Shown here in pieces: positions 5,110 to 22,790 of a DNA stretch of 64,000 bases; position 1 is the first letter of the stretch, and every line of letters begins with the position of its first letter. Position numbers and translations under genes: made by a program. This stretch comes from Escherichia phage vB_ESM-pEJ01: the sequence record OP114734.1. One strand, written 5' to 3'. The notes beneath the pieces are model-generated. The model had not been told where the DNA came from, made no database searches, and was given only the letters and a program-made list of their open reading frames with translations.

Positions 5110-5120
5110 GATAGATTTCA

Positions 5121-6335
5121 TTAAGCAGGATGCGTTTCACGAATGCGTAGAACTCGCTCTAACGTATCTCGGTCCAGTTTATGTAACTCTTTGGAATGAT
5201 ACATGAAACCATTGCGAGATTCCATGCAAGTGCAGTCACTATATTTTTCTTCCGCTGCCGCGATTGTCTCCAGATCTTTGGCGTACTTGCTGGTTGAATA
5301 AACTTCTCTGTTACGCCACTCTAACCCAGCCTCATTGAATTTAACAATCTCGTCAAATACCCACCATCCAATGTAGATAAATGAAGTTTTGCGCCACGGG
5401 ATCGGGTGTACGTAACGAAACATTTTAACAACTTCCATTGAACATTTTCTACTTGTACTTGTTGCAACTTCTACTGTTTCATCTTCGATCTGTTGATATA
5501 GTTTAGCAACACACCAGAATTTGGCTGTGTCATCGTAAGTAGCACTCTCTTTGAACAGATGACCGTCTGGAGTGATAGAAAATCCTTCCAGTGCTTCGCC
5601 AACCTCACTACCGATCAGAGTCGGTGGTATTTGCCCTTCGCGCTGCAAATACCAGTTATATTTGATCGTCAAATTAGGCATACCGCTAGAATCGCCTACA
5701 ATGTTCTCTGACACAACATAATTAAGTAAGATCTCATTACCTAGTGCCACGGTCTTTGATTCCACCACATCCTGATCTACGTTCATTGTTGCCAGCATGA
5801 TTTTAGTCGATGCGCTAGCGGCTGAATCTTCCGACTCACCCCACACTTTTACAGTATACACGCCGTTTTTATCTGCTGTAAATTCTTGGATCGTAATATC
5901 CTTTTTTGTGTCTATAACGCCATCGCCCTTACTCCAACTATAATGTAGTTCATAGTTGTCTGATGGAGTCTTCCCACCCGAAAATTTTACTGTTGCATGT
6001 AATTCTACGTTTGTTTGTGATGATACGTAGAAATGCTGCGGTTCGGTGATATTTACGATTAATTCAGCTTCTTCAATGAGGAAAACTTCAGATTCTACTG
6101 ATGTCATCGTATCGGTATCCTGTACCGTTACTTTATAGCTACCCGCATTTTCACTTGTTGCGTCTGCTACAGTTAGCGTAGCTGTGCTATTTTCATGCGG
6201 TTGGTCGTCTTTTGTCCATGTATATGTCAAATTGCTGGGTAATGGTTCGTCACCCGCTACAGTCGCCGTTAAGGTGAAACCATCTCCAGCAAGAAAACAT
6301 CTTTTGTCAGATTTAATTGATACTGTGAAAGTCAT
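5121..6335 (-). CDS. hoc: Hoc, highly immunogenic outer capsid protein
   Basis: Repeated Ig-like modules (TYTWTKDD, YSWSKGD) plus C-terminal module; position next to inh as in T4. Confidence 0.8.
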   Translation of the reverse strand: MTFTVSIKSDKRCFLAGDGFTLTATVAGDEPLPSNLTYTWTKDDQPHENSTATLTVADATSENAGSYKVTVQDTDTMTSVESEVFLIEEAELIVNITEPQHFYVSSQTNVELHATVKFSGGKTPSDNYELHYSWSKGDGVIDTKKDITIQEFTADKNGVYTVKVWGESEDSAASASTKIMLATMNVDQDVVESKTVALGNEILLNYVVSENIVGDSSGMPNLTIKYNWYLQREGQIPPTLIGSEVGEALEGFSITPDGHLFKESATYDDTAKFWCVAKLYQQIEDETVEVATSTSRKCSMEVVKMFRYVHPIPWRKTSFIYIGWWVFDEIVKFNEAGLEWRNREVYSTSKYAKDLETIAAAEEKYSDCTCMESRNGFMYHSKELHKLDRDTLERVLRIRETHPA

Positions 6336-18502: not shown

Positions 18503-20554
18503 TTACATTTTAAATTTATCTGGCATTGCGTCTACAGATACCAGATCAGCGATAAGCTGACGTAGAGTTGCCTTATCTGCTTTCTTACGTTCGGTTTTAG
18601 CTTCGCTAATGAAGCTGGAGAAAGACAGGTCAGAAGCAGGTTTAATAACACCTTCACGGATGAATGCATCACCGTCCGCGATCATCTCGCCAGATTCTTG
18701 TAATGCTGCCAGTTCATTTTTGTTCATAATATGTGCCTCAATGTAATAAGTTTCTTGTGAATCAGTCGATGCCGTGGCACTAGTTACCGTATCAAAGGAT
18801 AACACAACACCGCGAGGAAGTAAAATCTCGCATTCTTTGTAAGCAAATGCTTTGTTACCTACTGGCAATACAGGGATGTTTTCCGCGCCAGCAATGGAGA
18901 AAGCAACATTAGCGCCACCTTCACCGCGAGAGCCAGCCATAGAATCAACACCAGCAACGGCACTAGCCACGTTTGCATTCCAGCCGCCAAAAATGTTAGG
19001 TGCAAGGGAAGTGCTCACATAGTTTTTAAAGTAAAACGCTTTTTGCTTACGTGCAGTTTCCCACATTTGCGACCGGAAGTCCATACCACGATACAGAATA
19101 GTACCCGGATCAAGTTTAACGCCATAGTTGGAGAAGGCATTATCCAGTGCATCGCACATCTTGACCAATTCTTCTGGATCTGCGATGCCTTCAAACTCTT
19201 CCAGCTTACGGTCGGTTAGGAAGTTGTTCATATTGATGTATGCTGCATCGGCATATTCGCTCAACACAAAACCTTCCGCGCCTGGCAGATCAAGATCAAT
19301 ATCTGCCATCATTTCACCCATGTTGCTAGCAATTGCTTCAAACATACCGGACGCAACATTACGTAGGGCATCGGTTTTAATCTGGGTGATATGACTACGC
19401 AGCATTTCAGCTTTTACATCTGCTGGCATAGACTGGTCTACTCGATCCATTGCCAGGGCGGTGATCTTGTTTTCGAATACTTCCTCGCTCATGATTTCTT
19501 TTAAGCGTTTGACCGAGGCTGCGATAACTTCCGCAGACAACGGATCATATTGATCCTGAACTTTTACCAGTTCGCTTACTGCGTATTTTGCATCGGCTTC
19601 GCTTTCAAAAATAGTACGCATGAAACCATAGCGAGTGATAATATCACTTGTCCAGTCATTCAGAGAACGGGCGGTTGAACGTTCTAAGGCTTGACGGTCA
19701 ATCAGAGTATTAAACTGTTTCTTAGGTTCGGCTTCGGTGATATCTTCTTCCGGTTTAAGATTAATTTTTTCTGGATGATTCACATAGTCGCTGTTATAGG
19801 TCGCTTGAGTTTTCAGCATTTCTTCTTTAGTCAAACGAGATTTAGCCGCTACGCGTTGTTCCGCTTCCGCGTTTCGTTCTTCTTCTGACACAAGACTAGC
19901 CGCATACGCTTCATCTTTAGTCAGAGATTCACCGGTAGCCTTAGATACCCAGCGATCACCTAAATCACTTTCTACTTTAGTGAACAGGGAATCATCAAGT
20001 TTAATCCCTTTAATCTTATCAATCGCCATACCGCGACGCTTGACAACAACTAAAGCGATCTTTTTGCTGGTCATTACTTCCTGCTGGAATACTTCAAACT
20101 TCGGTGTACGACGCACCAAACGCTCTATAACGCGCTTAACCAGTTCGGTCTTACCTTTCATGCGGGATACGTTAAAACGGAACATAACAGCGTCTAATTG
20201 CGCTTTACGGGCTGTTTCCATAACCACATCAAAAGCACTTGCCATAACTGCAATCGGGTTATCACCTAGACCATTTTTAAGCTGTACAATACGACCGCTT
20301 TTGTTCATTTCGCACAGTACAACATGTGCGGTCTTGTCACCCATACGAATGATTTTAGGTGTTTTGTTGGTGAAGTTACAAAGACGGACAATCACATCTT
20401 TATCGCGTGTCTGTACTGCAAAAAGCTGTTTAGGATTCTGCTTAGGCTTTAAGCACTGTACCGGGGCAATACTACCAAAGTTTTCTTCCTCTTCCGTCAA
20501 CAGCCATTTCTCGAAAGATTCAATCATTAGATCGTCGATTTCTAAGTTAAACAT
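18503..20554 (-). CDS. alt: Alt ADP-ribosyltransferase (virion-packaged RNAP modifier)
   Basis: 683 aa (T4 Alt 682 aa); C-terminal ART motifs LYRGMD, STSLAP, ECEILLPRG. Confidence 0.85.
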   Translation of the reverse strand: MFNLEIDDLMIESFEKWLLTEEEENFGSIAPVQCLKPKQNPKQLFAVQTRDKDVIVRLCNFTNKTPKIIRMGDKTAHVVLCEMNKSGRIVQLKNGLGDNPIAVMASAFDVVMETARKAQLDAVMFRFNVSRMKGKTELVKRVIERLVRRTPKFEVFQQEVMTSKKIALVVVKRRGMAIDKIKGIKLDDSLFTKVESDLGDRWVSKATGESLTKDEAYAASLVSEEERNAEAEQRVAAKSRLTKEEMLKTQATYNSDYVNHPEKINLKPEEDITEAEPKKQFNTLIDRQALERSTARSLNDWTSDIITRYGFMRTIFESEADAKYAVSELVKVQDQYDPLSAEVIAASVKRLKEIMSEEVFENKITALAMDRVDQSMPADVKAEMLRSHITQIKTDALRNVASGMFEAIASNMGEMMADIDLDLPGAEGFVLSEYADAAYINMNNFLTDRKLEEFEGIADPEELVKMCDALDNAFSNYGVKLDPGTILYRGMDFRSQMWETARKQKAFYFKNYVSTSLAPNIFGGWNANVASAVAGVDSMAGSRGEGGANVAFSIAGAENIPVLPVGNKAFAYKECEILLPRGVVLSFDTVTSATASTDSQETYYIEAHIMNKNELAALQESGEMIADGDAFIREGVIKPASDLSFSSFISEAKTERKKADKATLRQLIADLVSVDAMPDKFKM

Positions 20555-20870: not shown

Positions 20871-20900
20871 ATTATAGGGGATCACCGATCCCCCTGTCAA
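20871..20900 (-). promoter_or_regulatory. Early promoter (TTGACA-N18-TATAAT on - strand) with GGGGATC/GATCCCC palindrome in the spacer
   Basis: Plus strand reads ATTATAGGGGATCACCGATCCCCCTGTCAA. Confidence 0.6.
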
Positions 20901-20907
20901 CAACTTT

Positions 20908-21426
20908 TTAGTTATTTTTTAATTGTTCATCTTGCAATAATGCAATCACATGCTGGCGATGCTCTTCTGATTGAGGCACACCAAAAAAGTTTGTTTTGTA
21001 GAAATACTCTAATCGGTCTTCTCGTGTGCTCTCTTCCATCATGATCGCGGGTAGTCCGAGATTTCGGAAACGTCGCTTTTCTGCTGGCGTAAAATCACTG
21101 TAATACAACATAGAATCATCATTACCAGCAATGCTAAACTCATCCTTCATGAAAGAGAATATTGCGTTTAAACGCTGTTTACCGTCCACGATTTCGATCT
21201 CATAGCGAGAGCCATCATCAATCTTAGCCATTGCGATAGAGCCTACCGGAAAATCATTAATCATGTTTTCGATAAACATACGTTTGTTTTCGGTGTCCCA
21301 TACCAAAGGACGCTGATAATCTGGGTTCATGTTGATATAGCCATCTTCTAACCATGCCTCATAAACAGAGATGACAAAGTTTTTAGTATTGGTATAGTAA
21401 CGGCGTTTAGGCGTTAAACGGTTCAT
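20908..21426 (-). CDS. DUF262 / ParB-like nuclease-domain protein
   Basis: NPDYQRPLVWD and IVDGKQRLNAI (DGQQR-type motif); ATG at MNRL after AGGAG. Confidence 0.6.
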   Translation of the reverse strand: MNRLTPKRRYYTNTKNFVISVYEAWLEDGYINMNPDYQRPLVWDTENKRMFIENMINDFPVGSIAMAKIDDGSRYEIEIVDGKQRLNAIFSFMKDEFSIAGNDDSMLYYSDFTPAEKRRFRNLGLPAIMMEESTREDRLEYFYKTNFFGVPQSEEHRQHVIALLQDEQLKNN

Positions 21427-21427
21427 G

Positions 21428-21760
21428 TTATAGTCTCCTGAATGGATCATCACGTAAATCAATATCTTTTAAGAACTCATCCCATGAATGGCGGATATTA
21501 TTCTTAATTCTCCAGATAAGCGAAGGGATTGAACGCTCTCCCATCTGGAAGTATGGATCATATGATCCGTATGCCCAATATGCTACTACAATTCCGCAAT
21601 CAGTGCAATAGTATTCTATCTCGCTTGCTGGCGACCAAAGTCCATCAATATGATCACGGATCTTGCTTTCAATGTTATGACTATGGCAATCAGGGCAACG
21701 GATGCAATGACCTTGTTTGTCATAATTTGACGTTAGCGAATACTTAAACAATCTCATCAT
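21428..21760 (-). CDS. Zinc-ribbon protein (110 aa)
   Basis: CIRCPDC...CTDC (two CxxC pairs); start overlaps upstream stop. Confidence 0.5.
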   Translation of the reverse strand: MMRLFKYSLTSNYDKQGHCIRCPDCHSHNIESKIRDHIDGLWSPASEIEYYCTDCGIVVAYWAYGSYDPYFQMGERSIPSLIWRIKNNIRHSWDEFLKDIDLRDDPFRRL

Positions 21761-22473
21761 AGATCCTTATTGGCTTCAAATACTGCCTTTGCGAATCCTC
21801 GCGGGGTAAGTGACCTGATAGTCTTTGTTCTGGTTCCTTTCCCGCCTAGCTTAGAATGCTGTTTACTGTACCCTTTATTAATCGGCAACGGTTTCTTTTC
21901 TGGCATTATAAAGCCTTGTCCGGTCCATAAGCAAGTCTTTTTCGGGTACATATCACGGGCGGCAATATACTCAGGAAACGTAGGATGTATATCATCTTCC
22001 GGCAAATAACCGCCATATTCCCACGGGTGGAACATGTAATCAGGCTTACGCCACATGCTAGAGATAACGCTTACAGGATTCTCTATCATGTAGGGAACTC
22101 CTAGCCATTCACCCAAATAAGCGGTTATTTTAGCTGCCCGTACATCATGAACTTGAATCAACGGTCCTTGTTCTAGTTTCTTTCGTTCAAAGTGCGCAGC
22201 GCCACTAACAGCTAAATTGGTGCACGGTGGGAATGCAAAGATAATATCCGGTTTCCCCCATTCAAGGTCCATTGCTCTTTCCAGCCAGTTCAAATCAATC
22301 CAGGTGTTTACATAGGTAATGTTTTGATGTTCAAATCGGGTATTATATTTTTTGTATGTACCGTGGTCGCCATCGTCAGCATTAAAGCAGATCACCTTAT
22401 GACCTGCTTTAGCCCATTCTAACCCCATTATCCCCGATCCGTCAAAGTTGCAGAATATTAATTTTTGTTTCAC
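21757..22473 (-). CDS. C5-cytosine methyltransferase-like protein, truncated (238 aa)
   Basis: Motif I-like FCNFDGSG, motif IV-like FPPCTNLAVSGA (Pro-Cys), motif VI-like MIENP; no obvious target-recognition domain. Confidence 0.4.
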   Translation of the reverse strand: MKQKLIFCNFDGSGIMGLEWAKAGHKVICFNADDGDHGTYKKYNTRFEHQNITYVNTWIDLNWLERAMDLEWGKPDIIFAFPPCTNLAVSGAAHFERKKLEQGPLIQVHDVRAAKITAYLGEWLGVPYMIENPVSVISSMWRKPDYMFHPWEYGGYLPEDDIHPTFPEYIAARDMYPKKTCLWTGQGFIMPEKKPLPINKGYSKQHSKLGGKGTRTKTIRSLTPRGFAKAVFEANKDL

Positions 22474-22721
22474 GCTGCCCCCATTGGTTTGATAGTAACA
22501 GAATCTAAAAGACCTTTGTTAGCCAGTTCGCGGCAAGTTTTCAGATCCGCAACTTCCCAGCCAGCCGCAATCAGGTTATCGATTAGGCTGTTAGCAACTT
22601 CTTCGCTCATGAAAGAGCACTGTTTGCCGATGGTGTAGCGTACACGCTGTAATTTCAGTTTACGGAAGCCTTTAACGTTCAGGTCTTTAGCGATTTTCTT
22701 TGCGGTTTCGATGTTAGCCAT
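22470..22721 (-). CDS. Hypothetical small early protein (83 aa)
   Basis: First gene after promoter 22762..22790; coupled to downstream gene. Confidence 0.55.
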   Translation of the reverse strand: MANIETAKKIAKDLNVKGFRKLKLQRVRYTIGKQCSFMSEEVANSLIDNLIAAGWEVADLKTCRELANKGLLDSVTIKPMGAA

Positions 22722-22761: not shown

Positions 22762-22790
22762 ATTGTAGGGGAGTTATCCTCCCCTGTCAA
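22762..22790 (-). promoter_or_regulatory. Early promoter (TTGACA-N17-TACAAT) with GGGGAG/CTCCCC palindrome
   Basis: Plus strand reads ATTGTAGGGGAGTTATCCTCCCCTGTCAA. Confidence 0.55.

Follow-up and report, generated by a model that had tools for sequence, protein, structure and literature searches.

The hyperplastic regions of the coliphages RB49 and phi1, in which gene content varies among close relatives, contain PeSL (promoter-early stem-loop) cassettes, where an AT-rich tract precedes a consensus sigma-70 promoter that is combined with a polyG/polyC stem-loop, and small accessory genes (single ORFans) lie between such elements (Arbiol et al. 2010, PMC2839356). The function of PeSLs has been described, and both promoter and terminator activity were shown for RB49/phi1 elements other than those considered below (PMC2839356). 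A second point of comparison is the Dcm of Bas06 (gene bas06_0055 of Escherichia phage KarlJaspers; K42 Dcm), a trigger of retron Ec86/Eco1. Expressed alone, K42 Dcm raised 5mC in msDNA as measured by LC-MS, while its quadruple mutant (C82A, E128A, K175A, K176A) did not, and mutation of a CCTGG site abolished retron triggering; the CCWGG specificity of the enzyme was assumed from its name and is supported only indirectly, and the experiments used a dcm+ host (bioRxiv 10.1101/2023.08.16.553469). Finally, DUF262 is the N-terminal NTPase-type domain of GmrSD, BrxU and SspE, proteins of 560-820 aa that continue into a C-terminal DUF1524/HNH nuclease domain.

The window analysed here, i.e., the whole 64,000-nt stretch of OP114734.1, comes from a Krischvirus and is ~97% identical to RB49, KFS-EC and GEC-3S. 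Four ORFs follow each other on its minus strand (Table 1), and both the gene calls and the tight coupling given for them in the preliminary description were recovered. The reading we favour, at a probability of about 0.7, is that this locus would be one early transcription unit within an RB49-like hyperplastic region, bounded by two PeSL cassettes and encoding an intact Dcm-like methylase together with three small, independent accessory genes (for an 83-aa helical protein, a zinc ribbon and a DUF262 protein), which would share its promoter.

Table 1. Coordinates of the operon and its flanking elements in the window
Feature	Position	Strand	Remarks
Upstream PeSL	22762..22790	(-)	Predicted strong early sigma-70-type promoter TTGACA-17-TACAAT and GGGGAG...CTCCCC stem-loop
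83-aa gene	22470-22721	(-)	From the ORF list
238-aa methylase gene	21757-22473	(-)	GTG start, GTGA overlap with the stop codon of the preceding gene
110-aa zinc-ribbon gene	21428-21760	(-)	ATGA overlap with the methylase gene
172-aa DUF262 gene	20908-21426	(-)	ATG 1 nt past the preceding TAA
Downstream PeSL	20871..20900	(-)	Predicted promoter TTGACA-18-TATAAT directly past the last gene; stem-loop GGGGGATC...GATCCCC

Both flanks of the operon are intergenic sites that combine a consensus-type sigma-70 promoter with a G/C-rich stem-loop located between the -35 and -10 boxes, and they share the upstream AT-rich tract of the RB49/phi1 elements. The upstream promoter scored 11 of 12 matches in the promoter scan, its RNA folds at -19.4 kcal/mol (z = -4.8), and the equivalent site of GEC-3S carries a promoter annotation. 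The downstream promoter is a perfect consensus (12/12), with a fold energy of -14.6 kcal/mol. This composite motif occurs four times in the window and never in shuffled sequences, and two of the four occurrences are those flanking the operon. No convincing terminator was seen inside the four-gene unit, in agreement with the earlier proposal of one promoter ahead of the genes, and we infer from this layout that all four are carried on one transcript. By analogy with RB49/phi1, the downstream stem-loop probably ends this transcript, while the promoter around it is predicted to drive the next gene, coding for a 70-aa protein. Unlike in RB49/phi1, one pair of PeSLs encloses four or five genes here instead of a single ORFan.

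The number five refers to an additional 81-aa gene, which lies between the 83-aa gene and the methylase gene in ~50 of the 56 Krischvirus records. Hence, the "four-gene cassette" holds for the window, but it is a minority variant, most Krischviruses having five genes. The indel behind this difference is found at a short direct repeat inside the cassette and not at a PeSL. Operon gene content thus differs among Krischvirus records, as it does in the hyperplastic regions of RB49 and phi1. The operon genes are adjacent in all 56 records. For the 172-aa gene, a longer ORF with a TTG start at 21462 is also possible; the ATG was preferred because a Shine-Dalgarno motif (AGGAG, 8 nt upstream) and the GEC-3S annotation agree on it. 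The operon neighbours a 683-aa ORF (18503-20554), the counterpart of the GEC-3S gene annotated as alt, as had been proposed. Overall, as accessory operons of RB49-like coliphages go, this early one is ordinary, and we found nothing pointing to an unusual mechanism.

Several lines of evidence bore out the assignment of the 238-aa protein to the C5 methyltransferases. Its motifs include FDGSG (I, residues 10-14), PPC (IV, 82-84), ENP (VI, 131-133), KK (177-178) and RSLTPRGFA (220-228). Across the methylase family FDGSG, FPPCTNLAVSGA and ENP are invariant or nearly so, with the exception of N86, a position occupied by D in >90% of the family, to which Bas06 Dcm also belongs. More precisely, F10, G12, S13 and G14 of the SAM-binding motif are shared by 90% or more of the 32 family members compared, P82-P83-C84 and E131-N132-P133 are invariant, and KK and RSLTPRG likewise count among the family-wide invariant motifs. 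PHROG 757 ("DNA methyltransferase") matches residues 1-237 at 1.3e-89, and a high-confidence structural model has the C5-methyltransferase fold, with DNMT3B/3A/HhaI as best matches. The Pfam profile DNA_methylase (PF00145) covers only the N-terminal 84 residues with 12.7 bits (E = 0.087), under the gathering cut-off of 22, although three close homologs have a precomputed PF00145 match. NCBIfam gave no match for either the methylase or the DUF262 protein, and single-sequence searches of the PDB with the 238-, 172- and 110-aa proteins returned nothing useful, nor did the methylase-family profile.

Compared with the classical C5 methyltransferases of PF00145 (M.HhaI, M.HaeIII, E. coli Dcm, DNMT3A/B), the 238-aa protein is shorter by ~90-240 aa, carries Lys-Lys instead of Arg-x-Arg in motif VIII and falls under the Pfam cut-off. 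Instead of a variable target-recognition domain of ~80-100 or more residues, it has only ~30-35 residues between KKTCLWTG (177-185) and IRSLTPRG (219-226), and this short region is almost invariant family-wide. The preliminary description saw here a truncated enzyme, a view we reject: the family counts 7,330 proteins, the 120 homologs listed are all 219-259 aa long, and a 55%-identical relative is active alone. From its motifs and modelled fold we take the protein for a complete Dcm-like cytosine-C5 DNA methyltransferase, compact and orphan, and this would be the fitting label for it in Krischvirus genomes, rather than truncated or hypothetical.

The active relative is Bas06 Dcm, which aligns with residues 1-235 of the 238-aa protein at 55% identity (E = 3e-92). 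The two share a compact size (236 vs 238 aa), membership in PHROG 757, a DNMT3-like predicted fold and catalytic residues: C84, E131, K177 and K178 align with C82, E128, K175 and K176 of Bas06/K42 Dcm, the last two of which were assigned to motif VIII by superposition on DNMT3A (bioRxiv 10.1101/2023.08.16.553469). They differ in their carriers and gene neighbourhoods, Bas06 being a siphovirus of Drexlerviridae with dcm adjoining replication genes, whereas Krischvirus is a myovirus of Straboviridae with the methylase gene in a PeSL cassette.

For Krischvirus, we infer the activity, specificity and biological role of the methylase from this ortholog. Made early in infection, the enzyme would draw on SAM and, through the Pro-Cys nucleophile C84, place 5-methylcytosine at a short, sparse DNA motif, probably CCWGG by analogy with K42 Dcm. 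Such a mark might then shield phage DNA from those restriction enzymes that it blocks, which makes it plausible that the methylase by itself counters restriction. Sparse modification fits the observations that HpaII and NheI both digest RB49 DNA (PMC4041780) and that virion DNA of Krischvirus TB34 contains no detectable modified nucleoside (PMC13390438). In the window, CCWGG is depleted ~2- to 3-fold. Avoidance of such sites thus seems to be the phage's main resort, and it is hard to see what a methylase would add. We dropped these counts as a clue to specificity, since dozens of other palindromes are depleted as well.

The putative cost of the enzyme would be its detection by the host: phage Dcm enzymes can be sensed by retron Ec86 and, as members of the family trigger this retron, RB49-like phages may be sensed as well. 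This possibility is in tension with the growth of RB49-like phages on E. coli B, a carrier of Ec86 (PMC4041780; bioRxiv 10.1101/2023.08.16.553469), which is unexpected if the Krischvirus methylase behaves exactly like K42 Dcm.

Turning to the last gene of the operon, DUF262/GmrSD_N (PF03235) matches its 172-aa product with 73.5 bits against a cut-off of 33.2, and both DUF262 profile and fold searches of the PDB were productive, assigning it a ParB/Srx-like fold. Three motifs stand out, namely YQRPLVW (37-43), VDGKQR (80-85) and NFFGVPQSEEH (146-156); in the short DUF262 family Y37-Q38-R39, W43, G82 and Q84 are invariant and D81, K83 and R85 are kept in at least 90% of members, so the DGKQR-type motif described before is genuinely conserved. 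Given this conservation, a nucleotide triphosphate, DNA or both are the most likely ligands of the protein. With GmrSD, BrxU and SspE it shares the DUF262 NTPase-type domain with its QR..W and DGxQR motifs and fold. Unlike them, it is phage-encoded, carries the family-specific NFxGVPQSEEH motif and ends right after the DUF262 domain; Pfam detected no nuclease domain (DUF1524/HNH) in the operon or the adjoining gene, the next 70-aa gene having no Pfam match at all. The comparison with GmrSD-type nucleases therefore does not extend to nuclease activity, and a GmrSD split over two genes, with its nuclease encoded apart, was rejected: the operon contains no nuclease, and the proteins encoded beside DUF262 genes in Slopekvirus KP27 (304 aa) and on contig L087 (357 aa) are unrelated to each other. 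On the grounds of profile and model, we regard the protein as a stand-alone, minimal, nuclease-less DUF262 (GmrSD_N, ParB/sulfiredoxin fold).

The 110-aa protein is, judging from its sequence, a four-cysteine zinc ribbon, as initially suggested. It carries C22, C25, C52 and C55 in two CxxC knuckles, along with a WAYGSYxP motif, and C22-P-D-C25 and C52-T-D-C55 are invariant among the proteins of the window and the distant homologs JenP1 gp54 and EC6 gp061. The protein matches phrog_2993 (2.8e-33), while Pfam Zn_Ribbon_TF stays below its cut-off (E = 3.4e-4, 20.6 vs 29 bits). A word-indexed homolog search recovered Krischvirus copies only.

The preliminary description regarded the pairing of methylase and DUF262 genes as a possible module and proposed to look for all four genes in related phages. 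Such co-occurrence was not found beyond Krischvirus: of 80 methylase loci, 78 have the other three genes nowhere within 4 kb, and the two exceptions are Krischvirus. Viewed from the other side, 121 non-redundant neighbour clusters of DUF262-only genes revealed no recurrent Pfam family and no recurrent methylase. Zinc-ribbon homologs and DUF262-only homologs occur in other gene contexts, those zinc ribbons of Nonagvirus and Felixounavirus (JenP1, EC6) without a methylase alongside, and a contig of a divergent relative (L088) encodes homologs of the 83-aa, 81-aa, zinc-ribbon and DUF262 proteins, again without a methylase. Taken together, neighbourhoods surveyed from both sides restrict the methylase-DUF262 pairing to Krischvirus and, with the divergent contig, rule out a conserved four-gene module. 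Absent co-occurrence may still be compatible with a functional interaction specific to this lineage.

It is tempting to suppose that such an interaction exists, with the DUF262/ParB-fold protein, maybe together with the zinc ribbon, loading onto DNA in an NTP-dependent manner and recruiting or directing the methylase. The pair would then be a split version of the phage ParB-methyltransferase fusions, offsetting the tiny target-recognition region. Translational coupling, adjacency in all 56 Krischvirus records and the mere ~30-35 residues between motifs VIII and IX speak in its favour, as does the frequent fusion of ParB-CTPase folds to phage DNA methyltransferases (PMC12704722); in addition, in one metagenomic case the gene that lies upstream of a DUF262-only gene, and overlaps it, matches N6_N4_Mtase below threshold (E = 1.2e-3). 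However, the known fusions join PF02195 domains to N6/N4 methylases and not DUF262 to C5 methylases, K42 Dcm on its own suffices for DNA methylation, and the neighbourhoods described above (78 of 80 methylase loci with neither zinc ribbon nor DUF262, no recurrent methylase beside DUF262-only genes, zinc ribbon and DUF262 without methylase in the divergent contig) argue against it, so that we consider this scenario quite unlikely. The DUF262 protein might also be imagined as an anti-restriction decoy copying the N-terminal NTPase/dimerisation domain of GmrSD/BrxU/SspE-type host enzymes, which would block modification-dependent restriction through dead heteromers or competition for modified DNA and possibly protect the 5mC marks set by the neighbouring methylase. 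This is unlikely: the protein matched no known anti-defence family, equivalent minimal proteins occur in many phages and prophage-like contigs among unrelated neighbours, and the strict conservation of the catalytic-type motifs YQR, DGKQR and N146 hints that the protein itself acts as an enzyme or binds a ligand, and is not a passive mimic. A counter-defence unit formed by the zinc ribbon and the nuclease-less DUF262 protein, with the 83-aa gene that is kept alongside them in the methylase-less relative, could serve to decoy, or block in an NTP-dependent manner, modification-dependent nucleases of the DUF262 type, or else permit methylase-carrying Krischviruses to grow on E. coli B despite its Dcm-sensing retron Ec86; we look upon this idea as a long shot.

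Doubts about the methylase itself carry the least weight. An inactive relic is unlikely, since no catalytic residue has been lost and the listed Krischvirus records, at 96-99% identity, all carry an unbroken gene. The transfer of another C5 group (e.g., hydroxymethyl or carboxymethyl) could feed the unexplained glucosyl-hydroxymethylcytosine reported in Krischvirus SAP. Yet the K42 ortholog makes 5mC, methylation-sensitive enzymes digest RB49 DNA (PMC4041780), and TB34, which has only canonical cytosine (PMC13390438), matches the window exactly as well as SAP does (in identity and length) across the 251-bp junction of the 83-aa and methylase genes. A hydroxymethylation link to SAP is thus very unlikely, and a protein that does not transfer methyl groups at all seems to us extremely improbable.

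Returning to the independent accessory genes of our preferred reading, the stand-alone DUF262 and zinc-ribbon proteins represent small phage families and are candidates for accessory-gene screens. The 83-aa protein matches phrog_14908 (5e-59) and was found in 56 phage records, all of them Krischvirus, with at least 99% amino-acid identity in 35. One stretch of it (residues 43-76) looks like a lone PPR-like helical hairpin, with weak matches to designer PPR repeats, and another weak match was to the C-terminal part of PADLOC RT_UG35 (E = 2.6e-5).

The four minus-strand genes of the preliminary description are all present exactly at the coordinates it claimed, and its proposal of translational coupling behind one promoter holds as far as the overlaps, the one-base spacing and the upstream sigma-70 promoter are concerned. 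A G/C-rich hairpin lies between the -35 and -10 boxes of both operon-flanking promoters; the window carries four copies of this composite motif, and shuffled sequences none. The flanking elements are PeSL (promoter-early stem-loop) cassettes as known from RB49 and phi1, in which they combine early promoters with terminators and mediate accessory-gene shuffling (PMC2839356). Since such cassettes stand at both ends, co-transcription of the four genes, which we infer from this layout, is likely. The promoter-like site and the hairpin inside the methylase gene are probably due to chance, given that totals for the region are close to shuffled-sequence numbers.

Features of the operon and its flanks (window coordinates)
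Feature	Position	Strand	Remarks
83-aa gene	22470-22721	-	ORF
238-aa gene (methylase)	21757-22473	-	ORF; GTG start within GTGA overlap
110-aa gene (zinc ribbon)	21428-21760	-	ORF; ATGA overlap
172-aa gene (DUF262)	20908-21426	-	ORF; ATG 1 base past upstream TAA, preceded by AGGAG
Near-consensus sigma-70 promoter, TTGACA-17-TACAAT	22790-22762	-	ahead of first gene
Perfect sigma-70 promoter	20900-20871	-	behind last gene
Weaker promoter-like site, TTGACG-18-TAGAAT, 10/12	22416-22445	-	just within methylase gene start; probably chance
Weak terminator-like hairpin	22014-22036	-	inside methylase coding sequence; probably chance

At 95-98% identity, the region matches 56 Krischvirus genomes, among them RB49, phi1, JSE, GEC-3S, KFS-EC and TB34. 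Elements of this known type already bear annotations in deposited genomes; in GEC-3S, the same promoters and the adjoining alt gene are annotated. The usual Krischvirus form has five genes, an additional 81-aa gene (phrog_7065; GEC-3S coordinates 5117-5362; no Pfam match for its product) separating the 83-aa gene from the methylase in about 50 of the 56 records. Only the window, G2248, UPWr_E1, E26, JK32 and JSE show the four-gene form. The deletion junction (window 22470-22476) falls in a short direct repeat, GTGAAA..AAAATTAAT, present at the start of both the 81-aa gene and the methylase gene, and the methylase therefore starts with GTG in the window and with ATG in GEC-3S.

The C5-methyltransferase character ascribed to the 238-aa protein is well founded, while the suggestion that it is truncated must be abandoned. 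Pfam DNA_methylase matches weakly (E = 0.087), and PHROG 757 ('DNA methyltransferase') covers the protein end to end (1.3e-89). A homolog search returned 7,330 proteins; the best 120, from diverse phage types and prophages, are every one 219-259 aa long, and three of them carry PF00145. tblastn places family members in 1,585 phage records, with Drexlerviridae, Dhillonvirus, Vequintavirinae, Webervirus and Phapecoctavirus among the groups represented. Invariant throughout the family are PPC (82-84), ENP (131-133) and K178, along with most of I-RSLT-R (219-225); F10, G12, S13 and G14 of FDGSG are kept in at least 90% of sequences. Between KKTCLWTG and IRSLTPRG, where a target-recognition domain would be expected, there are only about 30-35 residues, and these are conserved as well. 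AlphaFold2 modelled the protein with high confidence (pLDDT 90.9), and the best structural matches of the model are C5 DNA methyltransferases (Foldseek, DNMT3B/3A, E = 1e-8).

An experimental anchor comes from phage K42, which is 95.4% identical to the BASEL phage KarlJaspers Bas06. Mutations by which K42 escapes retron Ec86 were traced to a 711-bp dcm gene; K42 Dcm as the sole expressed protein raised 5mC in msDNA as measured by LC-MS, the C82A/E128A/K175A/K176A variant did not, and mutation of the msDNA CCTGG site abolished defence (bioRxiv 10.1101/2023.08.16.553469). The 236-aa 'Dcm-like C5 cytosine methyltransferase' of Bas06 shares 55% identity with the window protein along the full length (E = 3e-92), and its C82, E128, K175 and K176 align with C84, E131, K177 and K178. 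On this alignment and the activity of K42 Dcm, the window protein is a full representative of a family with active enzymes and not a truncated one. By analogy, CCWGG may be the target of the Krischvirus methylase, although for K42, too, this target was assumed rather than mapped.

RB49 DNA is cleaved by HpaII and NheI (PMC4041780), and no modified nucleoside was detected in virion DNA of the Krischvirus TB34 (PMC13390438). Taken together, these data exclude dense methylation and are still compatible with a sparse site. The window contains 24 CCWGG sites in its 64 kb against 53-74 expected (about one third), and their full methylation would convert, by our estimate, about 0.2% of cytosines. Over window positions 1-64000, many restriction-type palindromes are strongly avoided; several are missing altogether (observed/expected: TCCGGA 0/50, AAGCTT 0/28, GGATCC 0/25, AGCGCT 0/23) or depleted (GAATTC 2/35, GGCC 46/137), with GATC at expectation (708/677). 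This pattern fits a phage that leaves its cytosine essentially unmodified and depends on avoiding the sites. The Krischviruses SAP and TB34 are 99.96% identical, yet their DNA chemistry is wholly different: hydroxymethyl- and glucosylmethyl-cytosine with BrxU sensitivity in SAP, canonical cytosine in TB34, and no hmC synthase or glucosyltransferase genes of known kinds in either (PMC13390438). Both match the query equally in identity and length over the 251-bp junction of the 83-aa and methylase genes.

The 172-aa protein contains the DUF262 domain attributed to it (Pfam GmrSD_N, 3.2e-20, far over the cut-off), and the comparison with GmrSD-type nucleases fails, as neither the protein nor its surroundings include a nuclease domain. 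The PADLOC models NsnA and PD-T4-2_A match it through their N-terminal parts only. An exhaustive search yielded 6,019 relatives. Stand-alone proteins of 155-190 aa make up many of its top matches, and a large set of others, of about 255-290 aa (P0143, P0148, P0153, P0159 and similar), place the minimal domain C-terminally behind an extension of about 120 aa without a Pfam match. GmrSD_N was the sole domain in all relatives scanned. The 172-aa protein is thus a DUF262 domain protein, not a GmrSD-type enzyme, and probably binds NTP and/or DNA. The zinc ribbon of the 110-aa protein (phrog_2993, function unassigned) is borne out by two CxxC knuckles that, with a WAYGSYxP motif, show no variation in the homologs of Nonagvirus JenP1 and Felixounavirus EC6. 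The 83-aa protein, restricted to Krischvirus, is encoded by the best-conserved gene of the operon (35 of the 56 records reach at least 99% identity). Its residues 43-76 look like one PPR-type (pentatricopeptide) helical hairpin, the matches being designer PPR proteins with E-values inflated by repeats; it also weakly resembles C-terminal positions 722-785 of PADLOC RT_UG35, a DRT reverse transcriptase (E = 2.6e-5).

Whether the genes form a functional module, as had been proposed, was examined from the methylase side and from that of its partners. A partner gene (83-aa, zinc-ribbon or DUF262) lies within 4 kb of the methylase in 2 of 80 viral contigs, both Krischvirus, leaving 78 loci without partners; outside Krischvirus, the neighbours are helicase, primase or polymerase genes. 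Co-occurrence is confined to Krischvirus among these contigs. No methylase gene adjoins the zinc-ribbon homologs of JenP1 and EC6, and in Slopekvirus and Karamvirus, the gene after the DUF262-only homolog encodes an unrelated protein of 304 aa. Across 84 loci with DUF262-only genes (121 non-redundant neighbour clusters), no Pfam family recurs: generic methyltransferase domains and DUF4942 appear in one cluster each, HNH-type domains in one or two. The metagenomic ENA contig k141_110561 (1-1528), from a divergent relative, encodes, in the same order, homologs of the 83-aa (72% identity), 81-aa, zinc-ribbon (65%) and DUF262 (56%) proteins, as well as a 46-aa ORF, with no methylase gene between them. 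These tests argue that the methylase is a separable passenger, and K42 Dcm is active without partners (bioRxiv 10.1101/2023.08.16.553469).

Some observations point weakly towards association, and we treat them as leads. Phages often carry ParB-fold/methyltransferase fusions (PMC12704722). In Logan contig ERR11525653_9905 (2953-4507), a DUF262-only gene (45% identical) overlaps an upstream 357-aa gene with sub-threshold methyltransferase matches (N6_N4_Mtase, E = 1.2e-3; phrog_18146 and phrog_498, about 5e-4 to 8e-4). In one lineage of viral contigs (21 loci, L129-L169 group), a CxxC...CxxC protein of 90-150 aa lies just 3' of the DUF262-domain gene, and in another (four loci, L133 group) a different one lies just 5', in each case one or two genes away. 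On these raw counts, the zinc-ribbon/DUF262 pairing may recur with non-homologous zinc ribbons. There is a small chance that the zinc-ribbon/DUF262 pair of the operon is a new counter-defence unit.

Overall, the locus is most likely an early PeSL-bounded accessory operon; the observation in the preliminary description stands, and its interpretation does so in part. Soon after infection, the methylase would put sparse 5mC on DNA, which might protect it from restriction enzymes sensitive to that mark, at the cost of belonging to a family that retron Ec86 senses; the three remaining genes would be independent accessory genes. RB49-like phages, including RB49 and MIZ phages, are routinely propagated on E. 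coli B. BL21(DE3), a B strain, carries native retron Ec86 (bioRxiv 10.1101/2023.08.16.553469). Krischvirus growth on E. coli B therefore sits in tension with the triggering of Ec86 by the orthologous K42 Dcm.
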